From positions 1 to 52,850 of the IMG/VR virus record IMGVR_UViG_3300032271_000563: DNA of 52,850 bases. One strand, written 5' to 3'. This document shows, one piece after another, positions 5,810 through 44,204 of this stretch. This DNA comes from a virus. Its lineage: Duplodnaviria; Caudoviricetes. The notes beneath the pieces are model-generated. The model ran no database searches. It worked only from the letters and a program-made list of their open reading frames with translations, and was not told where the DNA came from. The stretch's first letter is position 1. Each line of letters opens with the position of its first letter. The position numbers were made by a program, and so were the translations under genes.

Positions 5810-8800
5810 ATGCCTGAAGGTTTACTTAGCGGTGTTCTACCCGCCTTATATTCTGCTGGAGACTATGCCAAGCGCCAGGTCAAAAACATTGCCTCTGACC
5901 CATTAGGCGTCATACAGCAGTCTTTGGGGCAAATGACCGATACCCGTAAACGGTTTGATGATTTAGCCCGTATGGCCTACGGTGACCCCAAGAATCCTGC
6001 AAAAGTTACAAACAAAGCCGCGCACGATCTGCTCCAAACAATGGCCACAGAACAAATGCTCAACATGAACATGGGCGTGTCTGGTGTGGTCAAACCACTG
6101 AAAGGTGGCGCCTGGCTGGACAAAACAGTAGATCGCATGATTGATGACATGAGGCCAATGTATTCAATAGACGATAAGTTGTCGTTAGAAAAGCAATTAA
6201 AAGGATACCAAGATTACGTAGAGCAAAATAAAAATTTACCTAATGCTGATTTAACTCATGTTGAGGCAGGAATAAGAGACATTGAAGACTTGCTCAAACG
6301 ACTGCCTGGTTATTCAGCAGTGCATGAATGGTTGAATAAGAACTTGCGTAATTATGTCAAGAATGAGATGGGCACACCTTTTGACCCATTGCGTAAGCAA
6401 GCTGATGAAAAAACTAAGATTCACCTTGAGCCAGATCAATTAGCACACCAACCTTACATTGAGGGTGTTAAGAATAGAAGGGAAGAAGTGGGTATGCCTG
6501 TTGAGGGTATGGCCAAAACCCCTATGGGTAAGTCATGGGAAGATCGTGCTGATTTGCACATTGAAAGTCAACCTGCATCTTATTACCAAAACAAACCATC
6601 GTATGTTGCTGATTTTGGACAATTTGGTTCTAACAAGTTTCATACTGAAGAAGAGGCTAAAAAATCAATTGAAAAATGGCATAAAGCTATTAGTAATTTA
6701 AGTGCAAATGGACCTCTTCGTAAAGTTGTACCAACAATTCAAAGAACAGGGCCCATGGTAGAACACCCATGGCTTGAAAAGAAAGCACCTAATGAACCCA
6801 TTTACAACCTTGATGGTGGACAGGCATTAAACTTCAGGCCAGTTACCGAAACATTGTTAAATGACATATTTGAAGGCAGGTTACCTGCTGAAAGCTTAAA
6901 AAATGTATCTGTGGCTCAAGCAGTGGCCAGGCATTCAGACTATCAAAAGGAGTTGGCCGCACAATTGGCAAAACTTGAGGCGGAGCAACAAAAAAAGAAT
7001 TTATCAGCCAATGTACATAAAAAGTATGATGATGAACATCAATGGATTGAATTGCCCGACACAATGTCATCGGCAGAAAACAAAGAGTTTTGCAAAGGTA
7101 TAGGTAAAACCCTTGGGTTGTGTACCCAGAACGATTGGGCGGCAGAGGACTACGGCAGGCATGACGTTGGTAATCGTTTGTATGCTTTGATTGACAAAGA
7201 AGGTAAGCCCCACGCCCAAATACAAACAAAACATCGTAATTTTAATTTGCGGGACATAGCTCAATTGCCCGCTGAAGATCAGAAATTGATCAATAAGCAG
7301 GTAACAGAATGGGCCCAAAATCAAGACGAGTACCCAACACATAGTCGAGTTGAACGTGCATATTCTGATGCGGCCAAGTCATTAGGGCATCAATTGCCCA
7401 CTGATGTATTGGAAATCAAGCCACCAAGCAATGACTGGAAAGGTCAGTATTCATTAGACCGTGAAGAGAAATACCCAGGGTATCAAGAAAAGTACAAGCC
7501 GTATTTGGATGACTTTGTAAGGTCAGGCAACTATGGGGACGTGGGTGATTTGTACAACACCAATTTGTTTGATCTTAACAATGTGTCAGATTATGCTAAC
7601 AAGTTAAAATCGCATGCAAATAAAGTTGGTTTAAATTTTCCCAGGTTCATTACTAATCAAGAAAGAGATATATTAGGCGAACATTCAATACACCACCAAG
7701 TTGCTGAAGCGGTTAACAATCCAGCAATTAGACCATTTCCTGAAATTCCTGAAGAGCTTAGAAAGTATCAAGTACAACCAGAACCACCCGTACAAGAGTA
7801 CAAAGTAGGCGGAGCAGTACAGCATTTTGATGATGGTGGGGAAGTAACCAGCCAGGACGATTTAAACAAACCATTCTTTGGTAACCCCAACATTCAGCGC
7901 CAGGGTGCCGCGGCAAGAGCCAATGCGGCAGAGCGTTCGCCACTGACCCTGCCTGACCCCAGGACGTATGCGGCGGCCACTACAGCCTTATCAGTGCCTG
8001 TGAACATGGCCAACATGTTTTACGGCGGTGCCCAGTCAGTAGCTAAAAGTATTCCTGAGGCAATTAAGACGGGCCAGCCCCCAGCACCAATTGCGGAAAG
8101 ATTGGCTGAGAAGTATTTCAGTCAAAACCCTGGGATGCAACCCGACACTCCATTGGCTGAAGAATACCAGGGTAACCTTGGTAAAGCTTTAAGCTGGGTG
8201 CCACCTGTTGTAGGTGATTTGATGTTTGCCAGAAACGTGGGGGAAGTATCAAACCCCATGAAGATGATGCTTAAAGACTACATGAAGGCCAACCCGCCAT
8301 CAGTAGGATTAAGCACTAAAAATGTTGGTGAGCCCATTGGAGAGGCAATAGCACCTAAAAAAGTAGGTATCAATGTAAACCAAGACAAAGATAATTTATA
8401 TGCTGACAAAATTATCAGCGGAGAAAAAACATTTGAAACTCGAGATAGCGACTCATTGAGGCCGTATGTTGGTACCAGGGTGCCAATTATTGCCACTGGT
8501 AGTGGACCTGCAAAAGCAATAGGTGAAGTGCATTTGGGTGAGCCAATTAAAGTAACTTCCAAAGAAGAATTTGACAAATATCGAGATCAACATTTGGTGC
8601 CAGAAGGTTCAACTTTCGATATAAAAAAAGGTGGCGAAAAATGGTTGTATCCTGTGAGCCAGCCAATTAGATATGGCACTCCAAAAGATGTAGCTAAATA
8701 TGGCATTGTGGCCAGGGAAGTTTATGGCCATGAAGACGGGCTAAAAGATCAGCCATTAAAAATGGATATGAAATCAGGTGATATTACTCAGCACAACTTG

Positions 8801-11968: not shown

Positions 11969-11969
11969 A

Positions 11970-12860: not shown

Positions 12861-12870
12861 AGGATAAACC

Positions 12871-15453
12871 ATGGCAACAGAAATGCCCATTGAACAGGAT
12901 TATGACCGCCATATTGACGGCATGTCTGAGGAACCAGAAAGCAGTGTCACTGGATTACCTGATGGTGAACTAAACATTGAAGAAATGCCTGATGGTTCAG
13001 CCGTGGTAACCACAGAAGACTTTGAAGGTCCATCGGAAGATGAAGACTTTTACCAAAACTTGGCAGAAGAATTTGATCCATATGACTTGAACAAAGTGTG
13101 TATGCACTACATGGACCTGATCAAAAGCGACAAAATGAGTCGTGAAGACAGGGACAAGCAATATGAAGAAGGATTAAAACGTACTGGATTGGGTAAAGAC
13201 GCACCAGGCGGCGCTAATTTCTTAGGCGCATCTAAAGTGGTTCACCCCATTATGGCGGAGGCATGTGTTGATTTTGCATCCAGGGCAATCAAAGAGTTGT
13301 TTCCCCCAGATGGTCCCACACGCACAAAAATAATTGGTGACGTTGACAAAGACAAAATAGAAGTTGCTGAACGCAAGCGCGACTACATGAACTGGCAGTT
13401 GACCGAGCAAATTGAAGAGTTTAGGGATGAACAAGAGCAGTTGTTAACGCAACTACCCTTGGGTGGTTCTCAATACCTCAAGATGTGGTACGACGATAAC
13501 AAAAAGCGCCCTTGTACTGAATTTGTTCCTATTGACAAAATTTACTTGCCTTATGCCGCGGCAAATTTTTATACGGCACAACGGGTAACTGAAGAAAATA
13601 CCATTACGTCTTATGAGTTTGAAAGCAGGGTTCGTTCTGGTTTGTACCGTGACATTAATTTAATACGTGCCTCTGACCAACCTGAAATGAGTTATGCTGA
13701 AAAGGCAAACGTCAAGATTGAAGGTAAAAAATGGGAAAACAACGATGATGGCGTAAGAAACGTCTATCACGTGTATACCTGGATTGAATTTGATGAAGAC
13801 AAGCGGGCTAAAGGGGAAAGCGCGCCATACATCTTGATGATTGATGAACTCGACATGAAGTGTGTGGGTTTGTACCGTAACTGGGAAGAAGGCGATGACA
13901 CTAGAACAAAGCTTGATTGGCTTATTGAATTCAAGTTTATTCCATGGCGCGGCGCATATGCGATTGGTCTCCCTCATCTCATTGGTGGATTGTCCGCCGC
14001 CCTTACTGGTGCCTTACGTGCATTGTTGGATTCAGCCCATATCAACAATTCAGCCACCATGCTCAAAATCAAGGGCGCCAGAATGTCTGGCCAAACCCAG
14101 CAGGTGGAAGTTACCCAAGTTGCTGAAATAGAAGGCGCACCAGGCGTGGACGATGTCCGCAAAATTGCCATGCCCATGCCATTCAATCCCCCATCACCCG
14201 TGCTATTTCAGCTTCTGGGCTGGATTACAGACGCGGCCAAGGGGGTAGTGACCACCAGCGAAGAAAAGATTGCTGACGCCACAAATAACATGCCTGTGGG
14301 CACTGCCCAAGCTTTGATTGAACAAGGCGCCCATGTTTATTCAGCAATCCACGCTAGGTTGCATGAAAGCCAAGCCAGGGTATTAAAAGTATTGGGTAGA
14401 TTGAATCGCTGGTATTTGGATGACCAAAAACGCGGTGAGTTGGTGGCTGACCTGGACATCAAACGGGAAGACTTCAAACGTAGTACGGACGTTATTCCTG
14501 TTTCTGACCCACACATCTTTTCAGAAACCCAAAGGATGGCGCAAACACAAGCTGTAATGCAAATTATGGCTCAGTATCCCCACGCATTTAACCAGAAAGC
14601 GGTGCTTGAACGGTTCTTAAAACAAATGAAAGTGCCACAAATCAATGAGTTAATGGTCATGGAGCCTGAAGAGGACATGATTGATGTGGCTCAAGAGAAT
14701 GTATTGATGAGTACTGGCCAGCCAGCCAAAGCTTACAAAGAACAAGACCACCTGGCTCACGTGCAAGGACACTTAGATTTCTATCAAAACCCCATTTTTG
14801 GTGGCAAAAACCCATTGGTTATGCCTGCTTTGCTCCAACCCCTGGTCATTCATATCATGCAACACTTTGAAATGTGGTACCAGGCGCGTATGGATGAGTA
14901 CGTTACACAAGCTTTGGGTGAAAAATTGGACTATGACAACGTAAAAATTACCCACAGAATTGACAAGTTGTACGCTTTGGCATCCCAACACGTTGACCAG
15001 GATTCACAGCAGACGTTCTCTAAGATCATGCCTATATTCCAAGACATGATGCAACAGGTACAACAGCTTAAAAAGCAACAACAGCCCCCAATGGACGCTG
15101 ACGCACAAGCATTGGTGCAGACTGCAATGGCAGAAACCCAACGTAAAGCGGCTAAAGACCAAATTGATGGCAAGATGTCCCAAGCTAAGTTGCAGGCGGA
15201 TATTGCCATGGAGCAGGCCCGCTTACAGGCTGACCTGTCATTGGAACAAGCCAAGCTTAAAGCGGATGAAGACCGTTTTGGGGCTGACAAAAACCTTGAA
15301 ATAGCAATGAACGCGGAAAATAATCTTACGCGAGAGCGCATTGAATCAGCAAAGTTGTCGCATGACGCGAGCAAATTGCAACATGAGCAGGTGAAAACTG
15401 CACTGGGACTTGAAAATCAAGCCCAGTCATTCTTAGGAGGCCCAAATGGCTAA
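12871..15453 (+). CDS. portal protein (P22-like) with long C-terminal coiled coil
   Basis: 860 aa; position between terminase and scaffold; HPIMAEAC...ELFP, PVGTAQALIEQG; Q/A-rich tail. Confidence 0.85.
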   Translation: MATEMPIEQDYDRHIDGMSEEPESSVTGLPDGELNIEEMPDGSAVVTTEDFEGPSEDEDFYQNLAEEFDPYDLNKVCMHYMDLIKSDKMSREDRDKQYEEGLKRTGLGKDAPGGANFLGASKVVHPIMAEACVDFASRAIKELFPPDGPTRTKIIGDVDKDKIEVAERKRDYMNWQLTEQIEEFRDEQEQLLTQLPLGGSQYLKMWYDDNKKRPCTEFVPIDKIYLPYAAANFYTAQRVTEENTITSYEFESRVRSGLYRDINLIRASDQPEMSYAEKANVKIEGKKWENNDDGVRNVYHVYTWIEFDEDKRAKGESAPYILMIDELDMKCVGLYRNWEEGDDTRTKLDWLIEFKFIPWRGAYAIGLPHLIGGLSAALTGALRALLDSAHINNSATMLKIKGARMSGQTQQVEVTQVAEIEGAPGVDDVRKIAMPMPFNPPSPVLFQLLGWITDAAKGVVTTSEEKIADATNNMPVGTAQALIEQGAHVYSAIHARLHESQARVLKVLGRLNRWYLDDQKRGELVADLDIKREDFKRSTDVIPVSDPHIFSETQRMAQTQAVMQIMAQYPHAFNQKAVLERFLKQMKVPQINELMVMEPEEDMIDVAQENVLMSTGQPAKAYKEQDHLAHVQGHLDFYQNPIFGGKNPLVMPALLQPLVIHIMQHFEMWYQARMDEYVTQALGEKLDYDNVKITHRIDKLYALASQHVDQDSQQTFSKIMPIFQDMMQQVQQLKKQQQPPMDADAQALVQTAMAETQRKAAKDQIDGKMSQAKLQADIAMEQARLQADLSLEQAKLKADEDRFGADKNLEIAMNAENNLTRERIESAKLSHDASKLQHEQVKTALGLENQAQSFLGGPNG

Positions 15454-15601
15454 TGATGCAGAGCAAAAATCAATTCTTGTGCCACAACACAAGCGTATGG
15501 CCCAAGGCGAAAAGCTGGACGGTTCAAGTATGGGCTCAAAAGGCTCAGACGGTAAGAAACAAGGCGGTTTAAGCCACGCCTTGAAGAAAAAAAGTAAATG
15601 A
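15446..15601 (+). CDS. 51-aa basic peptide (not in ORF track)
   Basis: AGGAGG RBS; ATG 15446, TGA 15599-15601; overlaps both neighbours; MANDAEQK...KKQGGLSHALKKKSK. Confidence 0.65.
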   Translation: MANDAEQKSILVPQHKRMAQGEKLDGSSMGSKGSDGKKQGGLSHALKKKSK

Positions 15602-17123: not shown

Positions 17124-17669
17124 ATGGAATCACGTTTAAAAAAATCTCTCAGTGCTGGTGGCCGAGAAAGTCGTTCTTCCGAGGACGAATCAAGAAAACC
17201 GCCTGAAGAAAAGTTCATCACGTCGCAGGAACGTCGCAGAATGTGGAGCGAGGAGTGGACACAGAGTGCTTTACCTAAAGTCCCAACAGTGCCAGGTTGG
17301 CATACATGTTGGCTCTCAACTACTAACAGTTATGACAGCATTGATAAGCGTATGCGACTAGGGTATGTTCCTGTAAAAGCGGAAGAAATGCCTGGATTCG
17401 ATAATTACCGCGTAAAAGCTGGAGAACACGTTGGTTTTGTTGCTTGCAATGAGATGCTCTTGTTTAAAATCCCTATGGATGTTTATCAAGACTACATGTT
17501 GCAGATGCACCATGATATGCCCAATGAGGAGTCCGACAAAATTCGGGTCCAAGTTGAGCAATTGCAAGGTGGACAAGACAGTTCAGGCAAAAACCTGGCT
17601 GAAGTTGAAGGCGATGGGTTAAAGCAATTAAGTAGGAGAAATGTACCTGATCCCGTTTTTCAAGGGTAG
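17124..17669 (+). CDS. conserved head-region protein, function unknown
   Basis: AAGGA RBS; 181 aa. Confidence 0.7.
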   Translation: MESRLKKSLSAGGRESRSSEDESRKPPEEKFITSQERRRMWSEEWTQSALPKVPTVPGWHTCWLSTTNSYDSIDKRMRLGYVPVKAEEMPGFDNYRVKAGEHVGFVACNEMLLFKIPMDVYQDYMLQMHHDMPNEESDKIRVQVEQLQGGQDSSGKNLAEVEGDGLKQLSRRNVPDPVFQG

Positions 17670-20538: not shown

Positions 20539-21888
20539 ATGGGACAATTTAAACCAATGGTAAAAATGGAAACAACTGAACCATCAGTTGAGTTAAAACT
20601 CAAAAAAGGTGGTCATGTTTCCATGAAAAAAGGTAAGAAAAGCGATAGTGGTCATCACATGATGGACGGCGGCATTATGAATGCCTTGTCTTCACCACGT
20701 CGCTCTATGGGTATGCCTCCAACTATGATGGGCGCCGCTCCTGCACGTCCTGCCATGGCTTTGCGTCGTAAGGCTATGGCGGCAATGCCAACACCTATGA
20801 TGAAAAAAGGTGGTGAGATGGAGTCCAAGCATGACCAGATGATGGAAGACAAGCGGATGTCCAAGCTTGAGGCTGAATTGAAAAAGCATGAAAAAATGCC
20901 TGCTCATTTAGCTCACAAAGGTATGGCATCAGGTGGTTCATCTGATGAGCGCATGAAAAATTTGGCAAAAGCCCGTGAGGCACTTCAAAAGTGTAAAGAA
21001 GGTGGTGGTATGCATCACTTAGACAAGTGCGAAATGCATTTGGCTAAATGTGGCGGTGGTTCCATGAAGAAAATGGCCACTGGCGGTGCTACTGGCAAAA
21101 ATCTTGATGCATTTGAAACCAAAACTACCGTAAAAGGCAATGTTAAGCCTTTTGAAAAAACTGAAATGCATACTGCCAAGAAAGATAGTGCTCATGGTAC
21201 TGGCGGAGTCAAAGAAGGTAATGGTGGTGGTTACAAAAAAGGTGGTTCAATTAATTCTGAAACATCTTACGGTGACTACGCTACTACCAAAGTTGACCAG
21301 GCTAAGCCTGATTCAGCACACGGTACTGGTGGCGTTTCTATGTCCAATGCTGGTGGTTTTAAAAAGGGTGGAAAAGCCAAATATAAAACTGGTGGTGGAG
21401 TAGAAAAGTACGCTGTTGATAATGTTGAGGGAACTCCTAAAGGCGTGACCAATACAACAACTGGTGAAGTCAAAGAGTCCAATGGTGGTGGTTACAAGAA
21501 AGGCGGTGCTTTAAAAAAGCATTTCGCCACGGGGGGCAGTGTTAATCGCACTGGTCACGCCGTGGTAATGCCCCAAGCAAGTAAGCCCGCATCTAAAGCA
21601 ACAGAAATCAATATGTTATCTGGTGTTTTTAAAAAGGGCGGTCACGTAAAAAAGTTTGATGGCGGTGGTTCAACTGGTGACAAGATCATTGATCAAGAAA
21701 ACCAGAAAAGACTAAATGAATTAAATACTACCAAGTATGAAAATCAACACCCATTTAAGACAATGTTTAACAATGTTAAAGAGTTTGTAATGGGGCCGCC
21801 TACAACTCCCGCGGGGAGCGTTACCAAGACTAAAGAGTCAGTCACGGTAGCACCACAAAAAAAAAGTGGTGGTAGTATCAAGCGTTAA
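20539..21888 (+). CDS. basic repeat protein with about 14 hydrophobic-x-x-GG motifs; putative -1 frameshift isoforms
   Basis: AGGAG RBS; LKKGG, MKKGG, YKKGG, FKKGG, FATGG etc.; in-frame A-AAA-AAG at 21513 and 21648. Confidence 0.8.
   Translation: MGQFKPMVKMETTEPSVELKLKKGGHVSMKKGKKSDSGHHMMDGGIMNALSSPRRSMGMPPTMMGAAPARPAMALRRKAMAAMPTPMMKKGGEMESKHDQMMEDKRMSKLEAELKKHEKMPAHLAHKGMASGGSSDERMKNLAKAREALQKCKEGGGMHHLDKCEMHLAKCGGGSMKKMATGGATGKNLDAFETKTTVKGNVKPFEKTEMHTAKKDSAHGTGGVKEGNGGGYKKGGSINSETSYGDYATTKVDQAKPDSAHGTGGVSMSNAGGFKKGGKAKYKTGGGVEKYAVDNVEGTPKGVTNTTTGEVKESNGGGYKKGGALKKHFATGGSVNRTGHAVVMPQASKPASKATEINMLSGVFKKGGHVKKFDGGGSTGDKIIDQENQKRLNELNTTKYENQHPFKTMFNNVKEFVMGPPTTPAGSVTKTKESVTVAPQKKSGGSIKR
21513..21566 (+). 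other. putative programmed -1 ribosomal frameshift signal
   Basis: A-AAA-AAG in frame, 6-nt spacer, stem GCCACGG/CCGTGGT with inner CAGTG/CACTG. Confidence 0.7.
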
Positions 21889-22708: not shown

Positions 22709-23227
22709 ATGCCAAGTAAATCACCTGCTCAACATCGACTGATGGAGGCCGCCGCGCATACCAAGGGTGGATATGGTGGCGTTCCACAAAAAGTTGGAAA
22801 AGAATTTGTCAAAGCCGATGAAGGCAAAAAAATGGCAAACGGTGGTTTGTATGCCAACATTCATGCAAAAAAAGAAAGAATAGCCCATGGTTCTGGTGAA
22901 AAAATGCGTAAGGTCGGTTCTAGTGGCGCACCGAGCGCTAAAGATTTTCGTGAATCAGCTAAAACTGCTAAACACAAAGAGGGTGGACCATCTTTAGCGG
23001 TAGGACGTGGTGAAAAGCTTTCAGTGGACCGCGGTGCGGGTTTGACGGCCAAGGGTAGGGCAAAGTACAACAGAGAGACTGGGAGCCATTTAAAGCCTCC
23101 ACAACCTCAAGGTGGTGCTAGAAAAGATTCGTTTTGTGCCAGGATGTCTGGCGTTGTGAAACATGCGTCTGGTGATGCCCCAAGAGCGAAAGCATCACTT
23201 AAACGCTGGGACTGTCCAGGATGGTAA
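22709..23227 (+). CDS. basic three-module protein, C-terminal part DUF6321-like
   Basis: modules [12 protein letters not shown].., [10 protein letters not shown].., [18 protein letters not shown] joined by MANGG and HKEGG. Confidence 0.65.
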
Positions 23228-28823: not shown

Positions 28824-28831
28824 GGTTAACA

Positions 28832-30526: not shown

Positions 30527-30527
30527 A

Positions 30528-31400: not shown

Positions 31401-31412
31401 TGGAGTTTAAAC

Positions 31413-31793: not shown

Positions 31794-31796
31794 ATC

Positions 31797-35118: not shown

Positions 35119-35127
35119 GGAATTATT

Positions 35128-35772
35128 ATGGCAACGTCAACATCGGTAATGACATATGACTCCTTAGTCAACAATGTCCAGGTTTACCTGGAGCGTACCG
35201 ACGCCACCACAATAGAGAATATTCCCCTTTTCATTATGTTGGCGGAACAGGTGATTGCCAGCCAAATCAAGTTTTTGGGCAATTTAACGGTCCAAGAATC
35301 AACAATGGTGGCAGGTAGCAATATTATTCCCAAGCCAGCCCGTTGGCATAAAACAGTTTCCATGAACCTTACGGTTGCATCGACAAACACTGACAATCCA
35401 GTATTGTTAAGAAAGTATGAGTATTTGAAAGAGTATTGGCCTATTCAATCAAATACTGCACAACCGCTTTATTACGCTGATTATGACTACGACAACTGGT
35501 TGGTGGCGCCGACACCAGATCAAAACTATTCATTTGAAGTTTTGTATTACCAGCGCGTTCAACCACTTGATTCTTACAACCAAACCAATTGGTTTACACA
35601 ATATGCCCCCCAGGCTTTATTGTTTGGCTCCCTACTCCAGGCAATGCCGTTTTTAAAGAATGACGAGCGTGGACCTATTTTCCAACAACAATACGATCTA
35701 ATCATGCAAACTCTGACAACAGAGGACAGGTTGCGGGTTGGTGATCGTCAAGCCGTAGTGGTGGATGCATGA
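35128..35772 (+). CDS. tail adaptor/tubular protein-like
   Basis: IPLFIMLAE, APTPDQNYSFEVLYY, TNWFT..AP.ALLFGSL motifs. Confidence 0.6.
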   Translation: MATSTSVMTYDSLVNNVQVYLERTDATTIENIPLFIMLAEQVIASQIKFLGNLTVQESTMVAGSNIIPKPARWHKTVSMNLTVASTNTDNPVLLRKYEYLKEYWPIQSNTAQPLYYADYDYDNWLVAPTPDQNYSFEVLYYQRVQPLDSYNQTNWFTQYAPQALLFGSLLQAMPFLKNDERGPIFQQQYDLIMQTLTTEDRLRVGDRQAVVVDA

Positions 35773-37004: not shown

Positions 37005-39265
37005 TGACCAAACAAGTATTTCAATTAGATACCAAGGCTGGAATACAAAGGGACGGAACAGTCTTTGACAATCCTTTTTATACCGATGGTCTATGGGTAA
37101 GGTTTCAACGTGGCAGGCCCCGTAAGATATATGGTTACACTGAAATAACACCTAGCCTGGCTGGACCATCCAGGGGTATTTATGTAAGCCCCCAAAATGG
37201 TTTTACCAACGTATATAGTGGATATTCTGACGGTCTACAAGTAATTCCCATAAACAGCAGTGGAACTGGTGGTGGTATAAGTGATTTCACCTTATCCAAT
37301 TTCACTGCATCATCTCTTAATGTGTGGCAGTTTGATAATTTCTTTGACTCTTCGGGTTCAGGAAACAATTTGCTTTTGGCCCATCCAGGTCAAAATTTAG
37401 CGGCAATTGATAGCACAACAAATACGCCTGTTTTGGCTGGTGCATTAACGGGTACAACAGCATCAAAAGTTGGTGTTTTTACCCAAGCTGTTAATACAAC
37501 AAACGGCTCAGTCACCGCAACATTAAATTATCCTTTTACCAATCAATTTATTGTTGGCGCTGGCCAAACTATCACTGGCACTGGTATTCCATCTGGAACC
37601 ACGGTTACTGGGGTTGTGGCAAATACTTTGACCCTATCAGCCGCCGCTACAGCCACTACAGGAACAACTTTATCCACTGTTGCAGTAACTGGTACAGCGG
37701 GACAATGCTCATGTACAGCAACTACGCTAACTGTTGGCCAGTCAGTTTTTGTGACTGGTACAAATTCTGGTACAGAAACAGGCATAACAGCGGGTACCTA
37801 CTACATCATAGCTACCAACGGAACTACTACATTTACGCTATCTGGTAGCTATAGCGGTACGGCAATAACCACCACAGCAGGCACAACAACTGGATTGGCT
37901 TTTGTTGTAAACACTCCAATTACAGCAACATTTGACAACAACATTTCAGTTTCTGGTGGTGTCATTGTTCTTTTTCCATACGTTTTTGTTTATGGAAATA
38001 ATGGATTGATTCAAAATTCTGGTGCTGGTAATGTCAACGATTGGGTATCAGCTACAGCCAACGCTACAAATGTAGCTACAGGAAAGATTGTCCAGGGTTA
38101 TCCAATCCGTGGTGGTACTAATTCACCATCAGGATTATTTTGGAGCTTAGACAGCGTTATACGTGTGTCTTTCACTCCAACAACAACTACGGTTGGAAAT
38201 ACTTCTAGTACGTTTTACTGGCGGTATGACACGATTACAAGTCAGTCATCAATACTTTCATCACAATCTGTCATTGAATATGATGGTATTTTTTACTGGT
38301 GCGGTGTAGACAGATTTTTGTTATACAACGGTGTTGTCAAAGAAATTCCAAATGGATTAAATCAAAATTACTTTTTTGACAATTTGAATTATGCACAACG
38401 TCAAAAAGTATATGCAACAAAAGTTACTCGGTTTGGTGAAATTTGGTGGTTCTATCCAAACGGTTCAAGCACAGAGTGCAATAACGCAATTATTTATAAT
38501 GTTCGTGAAGGTACCTGGTATGACGCTGGTTTTGCCGCGGGTGCTAGGCGCAGTGCAGGTTATTTTTCCCAAGTTTTCCACTATCCAATCAATGCCGATT
38601 GGCAGGTCAATGCTAGTGGTGGCGTTAATTTGGTGACCATAGGAGCATCAGGAAGTTCTTATACAAATGGAACATATTCGTACTATTCTCTTACTGGCGG
38701 TACTGGCACTGGTGCTACAGCAACTATTACTGTTGCTGGTGGAGTGGTCACTGCTGTAGCCATTAAAAACCGTGGAATAAACTACACTGTTGGCGATACA
38801 TTAAGTGCAGTATTGCCTGCTGGTTCTGGGTTTAGACTGGTTGTTAATTCAACCATGACATTTGTTTCTTTGTATCAACATGAAATTGGTGTTGATGCAA
38901 TCACAGGCGGTCAAGTACTTGCAATACCAAGTTACTTTGAAACCAATAATTTGGGTTTTGTCAGTGGTGGTCCAGCACAAGAAACACCTGTATCAACTAA
39001 CAAGTGGTTAAGGGTTGAGCGTGTTGAGCCTGATTTTGTTATGTCAGGCCAAATGCAAATGTACATTACTGGACCGTCATATGCTCAAGGTGAAGATAAG
39101 TTGTCTGGCCCATATCTATTTGATCCAAACACTACAAAAATTGATCTTAAAGAACAACGACGTCAAATGAGAATTAAATTTGTTTCCAACGTACAAGGTG
39201 GAAATTATTTTTTAGGTAAGTTGTTATTGGACGCAGACTTCGGTGATGTAAGGGGGTATTCGTGA
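37004..39265 (+). CDS. tail nozzle/stabilisation protein (P22 gp10-like) with inserted beta modules
   Basis: VRFQRGRPRK N-terminus; FYWCG..RFLLYNG; FGEIWWFYP; position before ejection genes. Confidence 0.6.
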   Translation: MTKQVFQLDTKAGIQRDGTVFDNPFYTDGLWVRFQRGRPRKIYGYTEITPSLAGPSRGIYVSPQNGFTNVYSGYSDGLQVIPINSSGTGGGISDFTLSNFTASSLNVWQFDNFFDSSGSGNNLLLAHPGQNLAAIDSTTNTPVLAGALTGTTASKVGVFTQAVNTTNGSVTATLNYPFTNQFIVGAGQTITGTGIPSGTTVTGVVANTLTLSAAATATTGTTLSTVAVTGTAGQCSCTATTLTVGQSVFVTGTNSGTETGITAGTYYIIATNGTTTFTLSGSYSGTAITTTAGTTTGLAFVVNTPITATFDNNISVSGGVIVLFPYVFVYGNNGLIQNSGAGNVNDWVSATANATNVATGKIVQGYPIRGGTNSPSGLFWSLDSVIRVSFTPTTTTVGNTSSTFYWRYDTITSQSSILSSQSVIEYDGIFYWCGVDRFLLYNGVVKEIPNGLNQNYFFDNLNYAQRQKVYATKVTRFGEIWWFYPNGSSTECNNAIIYNVREGTWYDAGFAAGARRSAGYFSQVFHYPINADWQVNASGGVNLVTIGASGSSYTNGTYSYYSLTGGTGTGATATITVAGGVVTAVAIKNRGINYTVGDTLSAVLPAGSGFRLVVNSTMTFVSLYQHEIGVDAITGGQVLAIPSYFETNNLGFVSGGPAQETPVSTNKWLRVERVEPDFVMSGQMQMYITGPSYAQGEDKLSGPYLFDPNTTKIDLKEQRRQMRIKFVSNVQGGNYFLGKLLLDADFGDVRGYS

Positions 39266-39543
39266 GTTACAATACCGCCTCTAATAATCAAACAAATCTT
39301 ACTTCATTAATTTATGATCCACGACATCATACCTTTGATTCATGGGCTAGTCTCATGTGCGAGGCTTTTGCCGCTAATCAATTGGAAATACCTGATCCAC
39401 AAACAAATTGGCAAGGCTGGGCATCAGGATTAAAAGCAATCGCTTTATTTGATAATTCGGGTACTCCTGATCCATATGCGTATGAGGACTGGAGTGATTG
39501 GGCAACAGCTCTTGTTAATAACTACCAGCCGAGCCCACAATGA
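39262..39543 (+). CDS. small Trp-rich hypothetical protein
   Basis: GTGA overlap; AGGGGG RBS. Confidence 0.65.
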   Translation: MSYNTASNNQTNLTSLIYDPRHHTFDSWASLMCEAFAANQLEIPDPQTNWQGWASGLKAIALFDNSGTPDPYAYEDWSDWATALVNNYQPSPQ

Positions 39544-42500
39544 GTGATCCAGCATCCCTTGTTAGCGAATACTTTGCCGCCAATCCTAAGGCATCGCCTG
39601 AACAAGTGGCACAGGCTGTTCAATCCATAGGTGGTTTGGACGCTAATCCTGGACTTGCAAGTGCATTGGCTGGCCACTATGGCAACAGTGTTGGGGACAT
39701 CAGTTCAGCATACAGCCAATTAATCAATACGGCTCCAGCAACACCTACAGCAACTGTTGCGGCTCCTCTATCAACTCCTGTATCTGCACCCGTATATTCA
39801 TCAGCCGCTGACGTTTTAAGTGGTTTACAAAGTGGTGCCTTAAACCAAACAACGGCAATAGGTGCCTTACAACAAGCAAATTCTTCATTTGGGCAAAACG
39901 CTCCTCCTGCTCCAGTTGCACCAATTGCTCCTGCACAACCTGCAACAACAATTGCTCAGGCTCCAGCACCAGCGGCACCAATTGCACCATCTGTTTTGAA
40001 TGCAGATCAAATATGGCATGATTCAAGCGATGAATTTAAAAATACTTATGACACTATCCAAACAGGCAAAGCAACAATAAAAAATGCTCTGGTTGATGAT
40101 GGTGAAGGCAACTTTGTAAACCAATTTGGATTAAGAGATGCAAGTGGAAATTTAATTACAGATTATGTAAAAAATCTTGGTAATAACATATATCAAATAC
40201 CGTCAAGTTCCACTGGCGGAACCATGAATACATTTGTTTATGTAGATCCAAAAACTGGCTTGGTCAACCCAGTTGCAGATCCATCTAAACAAGTTATTTA
40301 TGGTGGAGGAAACTCAGGATCATGGGCAAAAGGTGTTGTAAGAGATTTAGGTCCAATACCTGCTATTTTTGCCACAGTTACGGGTAACCCTGAATTAATA
40401 CCTTATATCAATGCGGCCTCAACGGCAATCAACGGCGGCAACATTGGGGATATTGGTAAATCATTTGTACTTGGTAATGTAGCCTCGGCCCTTGGATCTG
40501 CGGCAGGTGATATTGTTGGTGGAGCCACTGGAAGTACTATTCTTAGTGGAGGTGCTCAAAACCTGGTTAGTTCAGAAATTTCAAGCGGTGGAAAAGCTGA
40601 TCCAGTAAAAGCTTTTGCTTACGGTGGTATTGGTTCTGCTGTGCCTATTATTGCAGGTGAAATTGAAGGTTATTCAAATTTAAGTTCTTCACAACAACAA
40701 ATTGTTAATAACGTAATTGCTGGGGCATTGTCTGGACAAAAGCCAACACAAATAGCTATTAACACGGCTACAGCAGTTGCCAAAGATCAAGTCAATACGT
40801 TTAATGAAATAAACAACAATGACGCTTTGCTTGATACAAAAACAACTCCAGGAGCCTCAAATACTCAAGTTGCCAATCAATTAATTTTTGATGCCTCTAA
40901 AGCTCCTGATGTCACTACAGCACAAAAATTGGCAGATGATGCTGGATACCATCAATTCAAATTTGACGGTAAAACATACACAATAAATCCTGCAAGCCCA
41001 ACTGAAGTTGATGTTGCAGACGCAACCAGGACTGGTAATTTATTCCAAGCAATTGGATATACGGACCCAACTAAGGCCATGCAAGCCGCTTTGGCGGCAG
41101 ACCCAAATGCAACGGGTTTTGTGATGGGTGGAAAAGAGTATTCAATACCAAAGGCGCCAACAACAGGGATTGGAGCAACCACTCCATCTACAGCAGACGC
41201 TCTAACAAATTTAATTAATCAGTCTTACGCAACAATTCCAGGCGGTTCAATAACAGGTGAAGGCCCTCAGAAACCTTTAACGCAACTTAATGCTCCTATA
41301 CCTACAACACCTGTAGTAAAACCTGTATCTGAATGGGATAACAATTCCAAGGCTACTGTGCCTGGAATGAATTTAACGCCTATTTTAAGTGCTAGAGATC
41401 AAGCAATTAAAGATTTGGGTGGAATAGATGCAATCACTGATAAAAACACAGGACAAATATTTGTAACTTTACCGCCTGAAACACCCGTAGCAAAACCTGC
41501 ATCTGAATGGGACAATAGTTCTAAAGCAACTGTGCCTGGGATGAATTTAACACCTATTGTGCCTAAAGAAATTCCTTTAAGCGCCAGGGATCAAATGATC
41601 AAGGACCTGGGTGGTCCAGATGCAATTATTGATCCATTCACAGGAAAAATATCTGTTACTTTGCCGCATGAAGACAAAATGGGTGCATCAGATATCACAA
41701 ATGTAAAAGGAACTGTAAGCAATATTTTAAATACTACTGGTAACAATTTAACTGGTGTAGGACTTGCTGGCGCTCAATTGGTTGGAAGTGCTTTGGGTGC
41801 TGATACATCCTATCTGAATAATTTGCAAAATGCAATTCAACAAAATCAACAGACATCAATTTCCAAATTGAATAACAGTGAGCAAAATGTTGCTCTAGGA
41901 TTATCAAATGCATTGACTACTTTTGCTCTAGGAACCCTGGGTGGACCCGCGGCGGCAATTATGGGCAACACTGCAATTGTTGGAAATAATACATTTCAAG
42001 AAGGTGTAAAAGCTGGACTTACTCCAATACAAAATGGCACTAGAACAGCCATGATGATGGGAGCAGAAACAATTGGTGAAATGCTGGGATTGCCTGGTTT
42101 AAATGTAGTTCTTAAAGGTTTACCCATAGGCGCATCACCATCACAAATGATTAATGCTGTTGGTAAATTTATTGGTGCCAATGTAAACGAACAATTTGCT
42201 GAAGCTGTTACCACCACCATGCAAATGGGAATTGATAAAATTGAAGGCATTGGATTAAATCCAAAAGCAACAGTTGATGATTGGATTGGGGCTTTAAAAG
42301 ACACGGCGGTTCAAACATTGTTTGCTGTTGGTGGCGGGCACAGTGGGGCAACTGCAATTAATTCTGTTGGCAAAGGCGGGTCAAATTATGTTGATACAAC
42401 TGACCAAACCAATACACCCACCACAGCACCATCAATAACCAATGTAGGTACCAATGCCACGATTACAGGCCCTGTTGCCGCCAATGAGCCCATCAATACC

Positions 42501-44204
42501 TCTGGTGGTAATGTTACCCCCATAGGTAATGCACCAAGCAGTTTGGCGTCTGCTGTATCAGCAATTGGCTCTTCAAATGGAACTTACAACCAGGCGCCTA
42601 CTTCAGGTGCAACCGCATTAGCCCCAAGCTTGGTATCAAACCCTGAGTTGTATACCCAAGGACAAGTTACTGTTGATGTCAACCCTGAAACCAATGTCAA
42701 AACTGAAGTAAAAGTTGACCCTGTAACCCAACAACAAACCAAAGTGGTAACTGACCCAAACAATGGTTTAACAACGCAAACATTTTTAAATCCATCAACT
42801 AATGTTTCTAGGGTCAACACGTACAACCAAAATACTGGTATTCAATCGTATGAAGTTACAAATCCTGCAACTAATTCAATTACCAAAACAATTACTGATC
42901 CAAATTCAAAAGTAGAGATCAAAACACAATCAAATACTGAAACAGGCAAGGTTGTTACCACGGTCACCAATTTAGCAACTGGGAAGATTACTTCAAGTGA
43001 ATCAGTAAACCCTGACATTGTGGTTAAACCTGTTGTAGCTCCTGCGGTAGCTCCCGCTGTTGCGCCTGCGGTGGCCCCTGTCGTTGCTCCAGTCGTTAAC
43101 CCAGTGGTCAATCCCGTTGTTAATCCTGTAGTCAATCCCGTGGTCAATCCAGTGGTCAATCCAGTGGTTAACCCTGTCGTTAATCCTGTAGTAAATCCAG
43201 TGGTTAATCCTGTGGTTAACCCAGTAGTAAATCCCGTTGTTAACCCAGTAGTAAATCCCGTTGTTAACCCAGTAGTGAATCCAGTAGTAAATCCAGTAGT
43301 TAATCCACCTGTTATTACAAATCCACCTGTTAATCCTCCTGGACCACCTGTAACACCGCCAGTGGTGCCTCCTGGGCCTCCACCTGGGCCTCCACCTGGA
43401 CCTCCACCTGGACCTCCTCCAAAACCACCAGAACCCCCAGTGGTAAAACCTCCTGTAGTTGTTAACCCTGTAGTTGTTCCCCCTGTGGTAACTCCACCAA
43501 CAACTACAACCACAACAGTAATTGACCCTAAAGTAACGGTAAAACCTCCAACCACTACCACAACTGGCGGCGGTGAGGTACCATCCTATACGCCCACGGG
43601 TGGTCCAGGGCACAAACCAAACCCAATTGTTGAGTCGTTGTTAAAAACGTACATGACAAAACAAAAGTTTATGAGCCCATTGGAAAAAATGGCGTTCCTA
43701 GCACATATTCAAGAGAAAACAGGCCAAGATATGACTGATCCATATATAACCTCCTTATTGTCAGGTAACTCATCAACCTCACAAACGACGTCTCCATCGT
43801 CAAATTACTATAAATATGGCGTTGAAACTCCAACAGTCAGTGACCAATTGGCTACCAAAGATACTGCTCAACCCCTTAAAACAGGGGGTGCGCCTGACCC
43901 TTATTACGCTGGTGGTGGATTGCCTACAATCAAAGGACGCAAGGATTTTAGAAATGGCGCCCATGTTGCTGGACCTGGCCACGGCACCTCAGACGATATT
44001 CCTGCCATGTTGGCGGATGGTGAGTTTGTGTTCCCTGCTGATGTGGTTTCTGCCCTGGGTAATGGGTCCACAAAAGCTGGTACGGAAAAGCTGTATCAAA
44101 TGATGCATGAAATTAGAGCCAGAGCAAGATCAGCAAAACCAGGTGATTTGGCGCCAGATGCACTAAAATCTCCTTTAGATTACCTGAAAGGTAGGAAAAA
44201 ATAA
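39540..44204 (+). CDS. large internal virion/ejection-type protein with tape-measure-like C-terminal domain
   Basis: 1554 aa; GPGHGTSDDIPAMLADGEFV domain; PVVN and PPPG repeats. Confidence 0.7.
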   Translation: MSDPASLVSEYFAANPKASPEQVAQAVQSIGGLDANPGLASALAGHYGNSVGDISSAYSQLINTAPATPTATVAAPLSTPVSAPVYSSAADVLSGLQSGALNQTTAIGALQQANSSFGQNAPPAPVAPIAPAQPATTIAQAPAPAAPIAPSVLNADQIWHDSSDEFKNTYDTIQTGKATIKNALVDDGEGNFVNQFGLRDASGNLITDYVKNLGNNIYQIPSSSTGGTMNTFVYVDPKTGLVNPVADPSKQVIYGGGNSGSWAKGVVRDLGPIPAIFATVTGNPELIPYINAASTAINGGNIGDIGKSFVLGNVASALGSAAGDIVGGATGSTILSGGAQNLVSSEISSGGKADPVKAFAYGGIGSAVPIIAGEIEGYSNLSSSQQQIVNNVIAGALSGQKPTQIAINTATAVAKDQVNTFNEINNNDALLDTKTTPGASNTQVANQLIFDASKAPDVTTAQKLADDAGYHQFKFDGKTYTINPASPTEVDVADATRTGNLFQAIGYTDPTKAMQAALAADPNATGFVMGGKEYSIPKAPTTGIGATTPSTADALTNLINQSYATIPGGSITGEGPQKPLTQLNAPIPTTPVVKPVSEWDNNSKATVPGMNLTPILSARDQAIKDLGGIDAITDKNTGQIFVTLPPETPVAKPASEWDNSSKATVPGMNLTPIVPKEIPLSARDQMIKDLGGPDAIIDPFTGKISVTLPHEDKMGASDITNVKGTVSNILNTTGNNLTGVGLAGAQLVGSALGADTSYLNNLQNAIQQNQQTSISKLNNSEQNVALGLSNALTTFALGTLGGPAAAIMGNTAIVGNNTFQEGVKAGLTPIQNGTRTAMMMGAETIGEMLGLPGLNVVLKGLPIGASPSQMINAVGKFIGANVNEQFAEAVTTTMQMGIDKIEGIGLNPKATVDDWIGALKDTAVQTLFAVGGGHSGATAINSVGKGGSNYVDTTDQTNTPTTAPSITNVGTNATITGPVAANEPINTSGGNVTPIGNAPSSLASAVSAIGSSNGTYNQAPTSGATALAPSLVSNPELYTQGQVTVDVNPETNVKTEVKVDPVTQQQTKVVTDPNNGLTTQTFLNPSTNVSRVNTYNQNTGIQSYEVTNPATNSITKTITDPNSKVEIKTQSNTETGKVVTTVTNLATGKITSSESVNPDIVVKPVVAPAVAPAVAPAVAPVVAPVVNPVVNPVVNPVVNPVVNPVVNPVVNPVVNPVVNPVVNPVVNPVVNPVVNPVVNPVVNPVVNPVVNPVVNPPVITNPPVNPPGPPVTPPVVPPGPPPGPPPGPPPGPPPKPPEPPVVKPPVVVNPVVVPPVVTPPTTTTTTVIDPKVTVKPPTTTTTGGGEVPSYTPTGGPGHKPNPIVESLLKTYMTKQKFMSPLEKMAFLAHIQEKTGQDMTDPYITSLLSGNSSTSQTTSPSSNYYKYGVETPTVSDQLATKDTAQPLKTGGAPDPYYAGGGLPTIKGRKDFRNGAHVAGPGHGTSDDIPAMLADGEFVFPADVVSALGNGSTKAGTEKLYQMMHEIRARARSAKPGDLAPDALKSPLDYLKGRKK
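41307..41670 (+). repeat. internal duplication of about 58-64 codons
   Basis: TPVxKPxSEWDNxSKATVPGMNLTPI...SARDQxIKDLGGxDAI occurs twice. Confidence 0.85.
43089..43304 (+). repeat. 18 tandem 12-bp units encoding PVVN
   Basis: 216 bp; amino acids identical, third codon positions variable. Confidence 0.9.

Follow-up and report, generated by a model that had tools for sequence, protein, structure and literature searches.

The genome of an uncultured freshwater phage raises the question of why one short Gly-Gly peptide recurs in late proteins that are otherwise unrelated, and whether it marks them for packaging or processing. The window analyzed here is the IMG/VR record IMGVR_UViG_3300032271_000563 at its full length (52,850 nucleotides), a whole phage record of 52.85 kb. 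In an initial annotation, a hydrophobic-x-x-Gly-Gly tag had been proposed either as a genome-wide address for loading cargo into the head or as a cleavage site that releases modules from polyproteins. Among 39 proteins scanned with Pfam and PHROGs, none fell into a family of tail tubes, sheaths, chaperones, or tape measures, whereas matches to an SU10-type adaptor (E 4.2e-22) and to nozzle-like proteins were obtained. The SU10-type adaptor, together with the absence of recognized tail tube and tape measure genes, suggests that the phage is probably a podovirus. Its capsid protein shared 79% identity with the capsid protein of Caulobacter phage RW. In phage RW, tagged cargo proteins are missing, and the tape-measure-type module described below is carried by gp066c, with MARGG and a terminal YMDGGRV. 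The sole tblastn match of the 449-aa protein was MW202545, and no cultured phages with tagged cargo proteins were found. In the parts of distant cultured relatives that were covered, the motif was not enriched (HTVC023P, four copies against 1.6 expected, three of them in Gly-rich fiber domains; CRP-901, none against 1.6).

All peptides listed in the initial annotation were located where it had placed them (Table 1), although KKQGG carries Lys at the key position rather than a hydrophobic residue, and HKEGG counts as a tag only through relatives that read MKEGG or LKEGG at that joint. The genome-wide signal was not sustained, as hydrophobic-x-x-GG occurred 32 times against 31.4 expected from 2000 within-protein shuffles when the 449-aa protein and four Gly-rich fiber proteins were left out. 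A logo of 120 homologues of the 449-aa protein, counted from the first Gly, showed Y/F/M/L at -3, K/A/N at -2, and K/A/T at -1, with V/I/A as the second residue past GG. The strict motif comprises seven residues, [FYM]-[KA]-x-G-G-x-[VI].

Table 1. Features of the window that bear on the Gly-Gly motif
Feature	Position (nt)	Strand	Context
2052-aa multidomain ('polyvalent'-type) protein	5810..11968	+	between large terminase and portal genes
YKVGGAV	7799-7819	+	2052-aa protein, residues 664-670
FDDGGEV	7826-7846	+	2052-aa protein, residues 673-679
YKRGGLV	11930-11950	+	2052-aa protein, residues 2041-2047, five residues before stop
51-aa basic protein	15446..15601	+	KKQGGLS at 15554-15574; weak, atypical instance
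181-aa conserved head-module protein	17124..17669	+	protease candidate of the initial annotation
449-aa Lys/Gly/Met-rich, net basic protein	20539..21888	+	motif-rich
Conserved tail ending KKSGGSIKR	21859-21885	+	449-aa protein
172-aa composite	22709..23227	+	three small basic modules, the last DUF6321; ends CPGW; joints MANGG and HKEGG
MANGG	22832-22846	+	172-aa protein, joint
HKEGG	22973-22987	+	172-aa protein, joint, residues 89-93
1554-aa protein	39540..44204	+	downstream of adaptor and nozzle genes
C-terminal tape-measure-type module	43875-44201	+	1554-aa protein; tandem motif, GEFV, predicted terminal helix
LKTGG	from 43875	+	1554-aa module
YAGGG	from 43905	+	1554-aa module
GEFV	44019-44030	+	1554-aa module

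The protein families were surveyed in 160 related IMG/VR loci (2,095 ORFs), with expectations taken from composition. The tagged families held 10 to 28 times the expected number of strict motifs, with 47 against 2.6 in the giant (2052-aa) family, 500 against 18 in the 449-aa family, 67 against 3.0 in the 172-aa family, and 137 against 13.2 in the 1554-aa family. ORFs without a homologue in the window had 104 against 15.7, and many of those that bear the motif were further large portal-adjacent ORFs and small basic ORFs. All other recognized families together contained five copies against 36.4 +/- 6.0 in shuffles of 977 unique proteins, and of 3,021 GG sites in untagged families five had the [FYM][KA] context, where 37.1 would be expected. 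This apparent avoidance outside the tagged families rests on related sequences; in one genome alone, the expectation would be only about 0.8 copies. Restriction to four or five families does not agree with a genome-wide address, and the motif was absent from the portal, capsid, scaffold-neighbor, adaptor, nozzle, and fiber families and from three other putative ejection-protein families.

We consider it very probable that the motif is the core of a short cassette, a joint or tail that marks module C-termini in a limited number of proteins. The placement proposed at the outset, with copies at module boundaries or just ahead of stop codons, was borne out by homology breakpoints, gene splits, and C-terminal placement. 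Motif codons differed between copies, which points to selection at the peptide level with no DNA-level recombination signal kept, and the idea of such a signal was dropped. Motif positions were conserved in alignments, and the conservation of an aromatic residue or Met at -3 and of Val/Ile suggests a peptide that is read by a binding pocket and is not merely flexible.

In the 2052-aa protein, [FYM]..GG.[VI] occurred three times against 0.10 expected, a number reached in one of 2000 shuffles and equivalent to p of about 0.02 once corrected for the 44 proteins tested. The strict motif was present in 43 of 51 unique large ORFs at the position of the giant gene, and the last motif lay within 60 residues of the C-terminus in 17 of these 43 large proteins (5.8 expected). 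Across 44 large proteins, a motif lay no more than 15 residues away from 52 of 175 homology breakpoints (13.2 expected; none of 2000 random placements reached 52), an association that is inflated by the tendency of BLAST alignments to stop at low-complexity linkers. Besides the motif, the linkers have a second conserved element, x-M-[RK]-x-[AEQ]-[LMV], which was found 30 times against 2.4 expected, a 12-fold excess. An ASCH domain was the only one to pass its cut-off in the 2052-aa protein, and only when the piece was scanned alone (23.2 bits against a cut-off of 21.2); matches to DUF7178 and an L5 gp82-like protein were weak and below cut-off. Polyvalent proteins are characterized by at least two recognizable effector domains in a single polypeptide. 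Similar to the polyvalent proteins (Iyer et al. 2017, PMC5512222), the protein is large and multidomain, lies beside packaging genes, and has domains shuffled among relatives. In the available text of that paper, polyvalent proteins are predicted to be packaged and injected, and their proposed processing uses embedded metallopeptidase domains, whereas such domains were not found here; the words 'linker' and 'glycine' do not occur in that text.

In the 449-aa protein, about 14 copies had been counted initially; 12 were recovered by the earlier definition and nine by the strict form [FYM][KA].GG, among 20 GG sites in total. Its family comprised more than 4,860 homologues (E <= 0.001) among 8,000 scored candidates, none of them named informatively, and the protein had no Pfam, PHROG, or NCBIfam match and nothing named in the ESM Atlas. 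Homologues contained 5-12 strict copies (median 8), which in places repeat every 8-11 residues, and the last GG was 2-5 residues ahead of the stop in 116 of 120 homologues. Additionally, 13 of the 33 invariant columns of the family fell within motif windows (6.2 expected).

In the 172-aa composite, DUF6321 (PF19846) was assigned to residues 107-167 (E 1.1e-16, 61.6 bits against a cut-off of 28.5), and separate PHROGs covered residues 1-42, 42-90, and 84-169. Its relatives have five module types linked through [FML][KA].GG, with the motif after module A in 37 of 39 cases and ..GG after module B in 31 of 35. The same modules are encoded by relatives either fused or as separate genes; where genes of this family were split, the upstream half terminated at the joint in all 12 unique cases, and seven of these 12 stand-alone halves retained the motif at the C-terminus. 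In T7-like cyanophages and pelagiphages the modules stand alone and the joint is absent, and stand-alone module B proteins in other phages start with M-A-K-[KR]-G-L-Y. A phiKZ-like match of module A was a stand-alone 58-aa ORF and uninformative, and T7 gp6.7 and gp7.3 were set aside as loose likenesses only. The 51-aa protein lies outside the strict motif with Lys at -3, and among its nine listed homologues seven keep GG and two read SG.

The 1554-aa protein is a probable internal or ejection protein, and its C-terminal module belongs to a family of 13,399 cluster representatives at E <= 0.001. Among 150 representatives listed, the module was invariably C-terminal, the motif was located 85-150 residues from the C-terminus in 149, and 257 of 265 strict motifs fell within this zone. 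Upstream of the zone there were eight strict motifs in 168,663 residues against 16.2 expected, and the strict or loose hits at residues 359, 527, and 928 of the 1554-aa protein are probably due to chance. In the 75 residues preceding DGE[FY]V, each of the 73 unique relatives carried one or more motifs, and 56 of them carried two or more. A fixed order of aromatic-type followed by Met-type copies was rejected, as the GEFV family showed no bias (35 versus 31).

Tape measure families accounted for 10 of the 16 PHROG matches to a 154-residue piece of the module (best phrog_6090, E 2.5e-7). The best PDB sequence match was the JBD30 tape measure protein (8rk3_A, residues 1002-1054, E 1.3e-4), and a pairwise BLASTP comparison with the C-terminal region of lambda gpH gave an E value of 0.004. 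By sequence similarity the module groups with tape measure C-terminal modules, whereas the 1554-aa protein is not recognized by the TIGR01541 profile (tape_meas_lam_C), as it matched no NCBIfam family at E <= 0.1 and lambda gpH matched TIGR01541 at E 1.1e-134 (448.7 bits). With no recognized tail tube or chaperone genes, the 1554-aa protein also falls outside the tape measure functional class. The AlphaFold2 monomer of the module was of low confidence (mean pLDDT 61, pTM 0.35) and had no globular core, with a C-terminal helix predicted at residues 112-131 of the piece (pLDDT about 80). A trimeric C-terminal coiled coil is resolved in T5, lambda, JBD30, and 80alpha; the helix predicted here comes from a monomer model. 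The motif and GEFV stretches were modeled as coil (pLDDT 43-55) with no predicted mutual contact.

The module was next compared with siphophage tape measure proteins. The gpH motifs cited in the initial annotation were confirmed (FATGG at 733-737, GEFV at 754-757, and YATGG at 778-782), and alignment agreed with its statement that the motif is shared with the proteolytically processed region of this protein. In a three-way alignment, A-x-G-G ... E-x-V was in register for the 1554-aa protein, lambda gpH, and T5 pb2; all have a bulky residue and A-x-G-G, with G-E-x-V 15-40 residues on. According to the accessible part of Linares et al. (2023, PMC10038345), T5 pb2 is cleaved after R1127 into pb2* and pb2C. 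In the aligned motif-like site, this places the cut directly before A-x-G-G, with R1127 three residues ahead of the Gly-Gly; T5 pb2 has Arg at -3 instead of an aromatic residue and is a single mapped site. For lambda, the portion available of PMC12617516 describes conversion of gpH into gpH* and gpHC with a loss of about 14 kDa from a glycine-rich region, by a catalyst and at a site given as unknown. A gpH cut at F733 would give 12.5 kDa compared with the reported 14 kDa or so, and residues 712-722 fit better. A dedicated phage protease is known for neither maturation in these sources, as far as their available text goes. Our phage differs from T5 and lambda in that no tail tube or tape measure was recognized and the module terminates the 1554-aa protein among the clustered ejection genes. 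A further difference is that the motif is found with no GE.V element, also in proteins of the head module, and that a single protein can have as many as 12 copies.

Two further virion proteins resemble the cassette in part. JBD30 gp46 (PDB 8RK3) has F-A-S-G-G-H-I followed by G-P-G-T-G-T-S-D-S-I-P and D-E-F-M, similar to the module. According to the text available of Valentova et al. (2024, PMC11445458), no more of gp46 is resolved than its last 33 residues, which leaves the motif region without structure, and cleavage at residue 1066 is proposed by analogy and not measured. In TP901-1 Tal, the glycine-rich junction of linker and catalytic domain is processed, and Gly-to-Arg changes block processing (PMC11409707, in the part available). 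Like the joints studied here, this junction is a glycine-rich peptide between virion-protein modules; unlike them, it is a Gly/Asn/Ser run without the aromatic, Lys/Ala, and Val positions, in a different protein with no homology. The literature searched on tape measure and ejection proteins and on glycine-rich or Gly-Gly motifs contained no description of the motif, and searches by peptide strings gave only noise.

As the motif matches the region in which T5 pb2 and lambda gpH are cut, it is probably a signal for either cutting or docking, and the T5 and lambda data lend cleavage circumstantial support. We tentatively favor, at somewhat less than even chances, a signal for maturation processing (cleavage) or for a junction. 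Tagged proteins would travel inside the particle, and the cassette would be the recognition site for a maturation cut at or beside the motif, placed between the -3 residue and Lys/Ala if the register with T5 pb2 holds. Such a cut would separate modules or trim tails, as in the siphophage tape measure proteins, and a polyprotein logic of this kind is suggested by relatives that encode the modules fused or separate. The catalyst would not be recognizably phage-encoded, and could be a host protease or an unrecognized phage protein.

The search for a protease speaks against cleavage. The M15 endolysin was the only protease family in the record (58 ORFs against Pfam, 39 proteins against PHROGs, and 10 against NCBIfam), which by Pfam also has no peptidase domain of clan CE or C39. 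The 181-aa protein, suggested earlier as a protease, was found in 75 of 81 loci but remained unmatched in searches of Pfam, PHROGs, NCBIfam, PDB sequences, and the ESM Atlas and is kept in Caulobacter phage RW, where the tagged cargo is missing, so that this candidacy is unsupported. The GEFV domain, the other candidate, would appear from its coreless, low-confidence model to be unlike an autonomous protease domain. A 195-aa protein gave only chance-level matches to PDB sequences. A role in GroEL binding was also dropped, as the GroES-like protein of the phage has a different loop, and the motif has no counterpart of what we take to be the hydrophobic triplet of the co-chaperonin mobile loop.

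Short peptide signals are known from other systems, including the capsid targeting sequence of T4 with its gp21 sites and the gp175 sites of phiKZ-type phages. In adenovirus and ASFV (Gly-Gly-X cysteine proteases) and in double-glycine leaders, cleavage sites of basic virion core proteins are marked by a hydrophobic residue before Gly-Gly, at position -2 from the first Gly compared with -3 here. P1 DarB has an N-terminal localization signal (PMC9024508, in the part available). With these short T4, phiKZ, and P1 DarB signals, proteins are marked for the inside of the head, for cutting by a maturation protease, or for both, in which they resemble the roles proposed for the motif. However, they are N-terminal and of other sequences, and T4 and phiKZ need a recognizable prohead protease, whereas none was recognizable here.

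Another possible but less likely explanation is that the motif is a docking or tether tag, namely a short linear motif that fits into a pocket of a partner or contributes a strand to it. Candidate partners are the GE(F/Y)V module of the ejection protein, the interior of the capsid, and the portal. In this case tagged modules would be loaded into the head and exit together with the DNA, and the 9-12 copies in the 449-aa protein would make it a multivalent hub. The tight repeats in the 449-aa family and the position of its last GG mean that cutting would yield tiny peptides or trim almost nothing, and a docking tag therefore fits better than cleavage there. C-terminal placement in the 449-aa tails and the large proteins, retention of the motif by upstream halves that stand alone, copies in tandem and multiples, conserved hydrophobic positions flanking a Gly-Gly turn, and adjacency to the GE(F/Y)V element in nearly all listed representatives are also consistent with docking. 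In addition, three phages with joint-less DUF6321 modules had no GEFV module by profile and MW202545 had both, and the GEFV and 449-aa families co-occurred in complete relatives (5/5 and 5/5), although these counts cover a single phage group and a few outgroups. Against docking, a receptor was not found, the monomer model shows motif and GEFV as coil without mutual contact, and the same motif occurs in tape measure proteins of the tail lumen, which makes a capsid-specific address unlikely.

We regard it as unlikely that the motif is only a flexible hinge, inherited from the tape-measure-type module and read by nothing, which persists because it tolerates domain insertion or in-frame fusion and so marks recombination or gene-fusion joins. 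Glycine linkers are common between domains, module swaps and gene fusions or splits occurred exactly at the cassette, and the M-A-K-[KR]-G-L-Y start of stand-alone module B suggests that some Met-type joints may be remnants of former N-termini. However, a start codon does not explain aromatic residues at -3, which are conserved together with Val/Ile after GG across four unrelated families, and a bare hinge needs no fixed place 2-5 residues from a stop. The variable codons, the enrichment of the second linker element, and the apparent avoidance of the motif elsewhere also argue against a passive joint. Lastly, it is highly improbable that the copies are chance products of Gly- or Lys-rich low-complexity sequence, because, although the loose pattern was at expectation outside the 449-aa protein and KKQGG and the three upstream hits in the 1554-aa protein lack support from family data, this is largely refuted by shuffles that keep composition within each protein and still leave the 10- to 28-fold excess, by the rarity of the [FYM][KA] context at untagged GG sites, and by alignments in which the positions are conserved.

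It is conceivable, though rather improbable, that one peptide code is used in internal proteins of many tailed phages, tying cargo, basic proteins, and the 449-aa hub to the ejection module as a train, serving later as a cut site, and also determining the maturation of gpH and pb2. If this were true, a seven-residue tag could send any protein into a host cell. To our knowledge, the cutting of gpH has lacked an explanation since the 1970s. A 2025 paper, in its available text, still calls the cleavage site and catalyst unknown (PMC12617516), and the alignable motif at the sole mapped site, that of T5, provides a concrete and mutable candidate for this question. Caulobacter phage RW, which is cultured and has a laboratory host (C. 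vibrioides CB15), carries the module, and the question is partly testable at the bench. Should the motif prove to be a signal for cutting or loading, it would be useful for annotating internal and ejected proteins and for engineering phage cargo. Because the joints occur in very large families (more than 4,860 homologues and 13,399 representatives), the motif may define a class of particle cargo, and with it the set of internal proteins in the particles of abundant freshwater phages and the manner of their release.

Nearly all genes of the 52,850-base window, which is the entire IMG/VR virus record and has an estimated completeness of 94%, were located on the + strand, and the record terminates inside an ORF, consistent with this estimate. 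Gene identities were assigned using Pfam and PHROGs. Neither database recognised a tail tube, sheath, chaperone, or tape measure family among the window proteins, and the phage is therefore likely a podovirus. The nearest GenBank records included MW202545, an uncultured phage from a Florida spring, and by capsid protein (79% identity) the nearest were the cultured Caulobacter phages RW, RLK, KcrB, and GB2A, members of the proposed genus Riverwalkvirus according to PMC11053796. A close capsid relative was encoded in more than 596 IMG/VR stretches. The GroES-like gene lies within the head module, and such a gene is likewise found beside portal/scaffold genes in Phage DSL-LC05, Caulobacter phage RW, HTVC023P, and CRP-901. 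In the fibre region, which shows a strong GC skew (0.25-0.31), the four paralogous Gly_rich_2 (PF21722) fibre-like genes encode 33-36% glycine, and two are duplicated in tandem inside one ORF.

Features of the window and the basis of their assignment
Feature	Coordinates	Assigned by
DUF932 protein (near left end)	2355-3203	
Sf6-type small terminase	3799-4314	Pfam/PHROGs
Large terminase	4304-5740	Pfam/PHROGs
Giant multidomain protein, 2052 aa	5810-11968	Pfam/PHROGs
Portal	12871-15453	Pfam/PHROGs
GroES-like protein	15782-16195	Pfam/PHROGs
Scaffold-like protein, 306 aa	16192-17112	Pfam/PHROGs
Conserved 181-aa and 195-aa proteins, function unassigned	17124-17669 and 17693-18280	
Major capsid protein	18292-19206	Pfam/PHROGs
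Lys/Gly/Met-rich protein, 449 aa	20539-21888	
DUF6321 protein, 172 aa	22709-23227	Pfam/PHROGs
Fibre genes, including four Gly_rich_2 paralogues	27978-33455	Pfam/PHROGs
M15 endolysin	34687-35118	Pfam/PHROGs
SU10-type adaptor	35128-35772	Pfam/PHROGs
Nozzle-like protein	37004-39265	Pfam/PHROGs
1554-aa protein, then three further large ORFs	39540-44204	
YdaS-like HTH protein and DUF1376 protein (right end)	52157-52850	

The peptides quoted in the initial annotation were all found at their positions, and its statement on the lambda tape measure protein gpH was right (FATGG at 733-737, GEFV at 754-757, and YATGG at 778-782). The loose hydrophobic-x-x-Gly-Gly pattern that it proposed as a shared signal was not enriched, with 32 copies against 31.4 expected from 2000 within-protein shuffles, counted after exclusion of the 449-aa protein and of the four fibre proteins rich in Gly. 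A sharper motif was derived from 120 homologues of the 449-aa protein, with no other protein used. Counted from the first Gly, its logo consists of Y/F/M/L at -3, K/A/N at -2, and K/A/T at -1, followed by Gly-Gly and by V/I/A as the second residue past the pair. The 449-aa protein contained nine copies of the strict form, [FYM][KA].GG; the giant protein contained three copies of the sharper motif (0.10 expected; 1 of 2000 shuffles), and the 1554-aa protein showed an excess of [FY]..GG (5 against 0.55 expected). The codons of the motif vary from copy to copy, so that conservation concerns the peptide and not the underlying DNA. Searches of published articles returned no earlier account of the motif.

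For a census, ORFs were called in 160 related IMG/VR loci (2.3 Mb, 2,095 ORFs) and assigned to window proteins by BLASTP, and strict motifs were compared with a composition-based expectation. Where a motif-bearing ORF had no window homologue, it encoded in many cases another large protein next to the portal gene or a small basic one next to the 172-aa gene. All other recognised families (terminase, portal, GroES-like, 181-aa, 195-aa, capsid, fibres, adaptor, nozzle, and the three other large ORFs that follow the 1554-aa gene) together held five strict copies in 977 unique proteins, compared with 36.4 +/- 6.0 in shuffles, and the [FYM][KA] context preceded 5 of 3,021 GG sites, compared with 37.1 expected. 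This is suggestive of depletion only, since the pooled proteins are interrelated and a single genome is expected to hold about 0.8 copies in these families (sum of per-family expectations).

Strict motif in protein families of the related loci
Family	Observed	Expected	Proteins with motif
Giant	47	2.6	16/17
449-aa	500	18	65/65
172-aa	67	3.0	51/75
1554-aa	137	13.2	75/79
Scaffold-like	8	0.4	8/65
ORFs without window homologue	104	15.7	54/724

The initial annotation placed copies at module boundaries or shortly before stop codons, and both placements held. Of 120 homologues in the 449-aa family, 116 have their final Gly pair 2-5 residues ahead of the stop. The motif windows contain 13 of the 33 invariant alignment columns (6.2 expected), and motif sites also take up insertions, for instance His-rich cassettes of about 50 residues in some homologues; the family overall is Met- and His-rich. 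Among large proteins beside the portal gene, the strict motif was present in 43 of 51 unique ORFs of at least 200 residues. Of 175 homology breakpoints between pairs of these proteins, 52 were no more than 15 residues from a motif (13.2 expected; 0 of 2000 random placements gave as many), an association that is partly technical because BLAST alignments often halt at low-complexity linkers; conversely, 70 of 116 motifs had a breakpoint within 30 residues. The last motif was at most 60 residues from the C-terminus in 17 of the 43 proteins (5.8 expected), and the giant protein's terminal module, which is L5 gp82-like, has a motif on either side in one relative and one after it in five others. Additionally, a second linker element, x-M-[RK]-x-[AEQ]-[LMV] (e.g., D-x-M-R-x-E-L), occurred 30 times in the large portal-side ORFs of loci L002-L081 (2.4 expected), 10 of them at most 35 residues past a Gly-Gly motif; it often stands 8-35 residues after the motif or right before a basic C-terminus.

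The 172-aa family is composed of five small basic module types in variable order, joined by [FML][KA].GG. The motif came next after module A in 37 of 39 cases, and ..GG after module B in 31 of 35. Where genes of this type are split, the joint ends all 12 unique upstream halves, seven stopping 5-8 residues past the Gly pair and five just ahead of it, and the seven unique downstream halves start at most a few residues from the next module. In T7-like cyanophages, pelagiphages, and a lake phage, two of the module types are encoded on their own as small ORFs that lack the joint; 485 phage records matched in all. Small basic ORFs between the 449-aa and 357-aa genes of L002-L081 end in Trp in 74 of 166 unique cases, compared with 88 of 1,938 overall, with tails that resemble GG-x-[IV]-S ... 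C-K-V-S-T ... basic ... [CNS]-W; the 172-aa protein ends in CPGW (23216-23224) and is the sole window protein with a terminal W. Two small proteins that T7 injects, gp6.7 and gp7.3, likewise have Gly-Gly pairs near basic C-termini, but these pairs are out of motif register and the likeness is only loose.

The 154 C-terminal residues of the 1554-aa protein, a tape-measure-type region named here the GEFV module, matched 13,399 cluster representatives at E <= 0.001. Among the 150 representatives listed, the match was always C-terminal, in proteins of 120 to 2,985 residues, and 257 of 265 strict motifs lay 85-150 residues from the end, in 149 proteins. Usually a tandem motif pair stands directly ahead of a conserved G-x-S-D-D-I-P-A-x-L-A-D-G-E-F-V element, and the same arrangement was found in 73 of 73 unique relatives from IMG/VR loci. 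Used alone as a query, the module matched tape measure families in PHROGs (ten of them, best E 2.5e-7) and, in PDB, the tape measure of JBD30 (E 1.3e-4), which has F-A-S-G-G-H-I ahead of the same element; the match to lambda gpH was weak (E 0.004). The 1554-aa protein had no match to TIGR01541, and in 26 family members scanned with Pfam a tape measure domain was found in none, an upstream GDSL lipase in two, and an upstream beta-helix domain in one. In a three-way alignment of the window protein, gpH, and the T5 tape measure protein pb2, A-x-G-G is invariant, as is E-x-V further on. Cleavage of pb2 occurs after R1127 (PMC10038345). In the pb2 translation, F-V-P-R is followed by A-E-G-G-M-M, placing the cut directly before the aligned A-x-G-G. 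The host is reportedly involved in this cleavage, according to the title of a 1973 paper. For gpH, the computed release is 12.5 kDa for a cut at F733 and 13.7-14.4 kDa for cuts at 712-722; the loss of about 14 kDa reported for this protein (PMC12617516) thus allows the motif without singling it out. In lambda, T5, and JBD30, the resolved part is limited to the last 25-35 residues and so does not extend to the motif region (PMC10721106, PMC10038345, and PMC11445458). Just upstream of the module, about 18 tandem copies of a 12-base (P)VVN unit followed by PPGP repeats (43088-43307 and 43371-43417) look like an extended spacer.

Family profile searches, including Pfam, recognised no peptidase other than the endolysin in the whole record. 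The 181-aa protein, one of two protease candidates put forward earlier, had no match in Pfam, PHROGs, NCBIfam, PDB sequences, or the ESM Atlas. It was present in 75 of 81 loci, and its conserved N-terminal L-K-K-S-L-x-A-G-G-R-E (17148-17168) fits only the loose pattern. The AlphaFold2 model of the other candidate, the GEFV module, was unlike a stand-alone protease, although a model of such low confidence (mean pLDDT 61, pTM 0.35, 39 sequences) is weak evidence; the motif and GEFV stretches were coil (pLDDT 43-55), and only helix 112-131 reached about 80. Equally weakly, the model is as would be expected of a segment that folds only within an assembly. Caulobacter phage RW keeps the 181-aa protein and the remaining head and tail core and is without the giant protein, the 449-aa protein, and the 172-aa composite; the conserved head genes are thus not specific companions of the tagged cargo. 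The only strict motif of RW lies directly ahead of the element in its GEFV-type protein gp066c, which terminates in Y-M-D-G-G-R-V. The GEFV module was present in 5/5 complete relatives reached via the capsid gene, and the 449-aa family in 5/5 reached via the GEFV module, as expected within one group. By profile, the module was absent from three phages whose DUF6321 modules are jointless, and the examined portions of two more distant cultured relatives showed no motif excess. These co-occurrence counts are too small to carry weight.

Taken together, these results show that a conserved joint/tail cassette, of the type seen in tape measure modules, marks the ends of modules in a limited number of proteins; gene position and composition make it probable that the particle carries these proteins inside. 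That the motif may be a cleavage signal is tentatively suggested by the site in T5, the region in lambda, the TP901-1 Tal precedent (PMC11409707), and the way in which modules occur interchangeably fused or separate. A docking tag, possible though rather unlikely, would account better for the multivalent 449-aa protein and the tails a few residues from the stop, and is compatible with cleavage, as both can hold. That the motif is a passive joint is doubtful: swapping of modules and splitting of genes at the joint agree with this, whereas conservation of the flanking positions does not. Chance is highly improbable, being largely excluded by the shuffles and alignments. For the cassette itself, this analysis newly contributes the multi-copy 449-aa family, the family-by-family census with apparent avoidance elsewhere, the gene splits at the joint, and a cultured Caulobacter relative retaining only the module.
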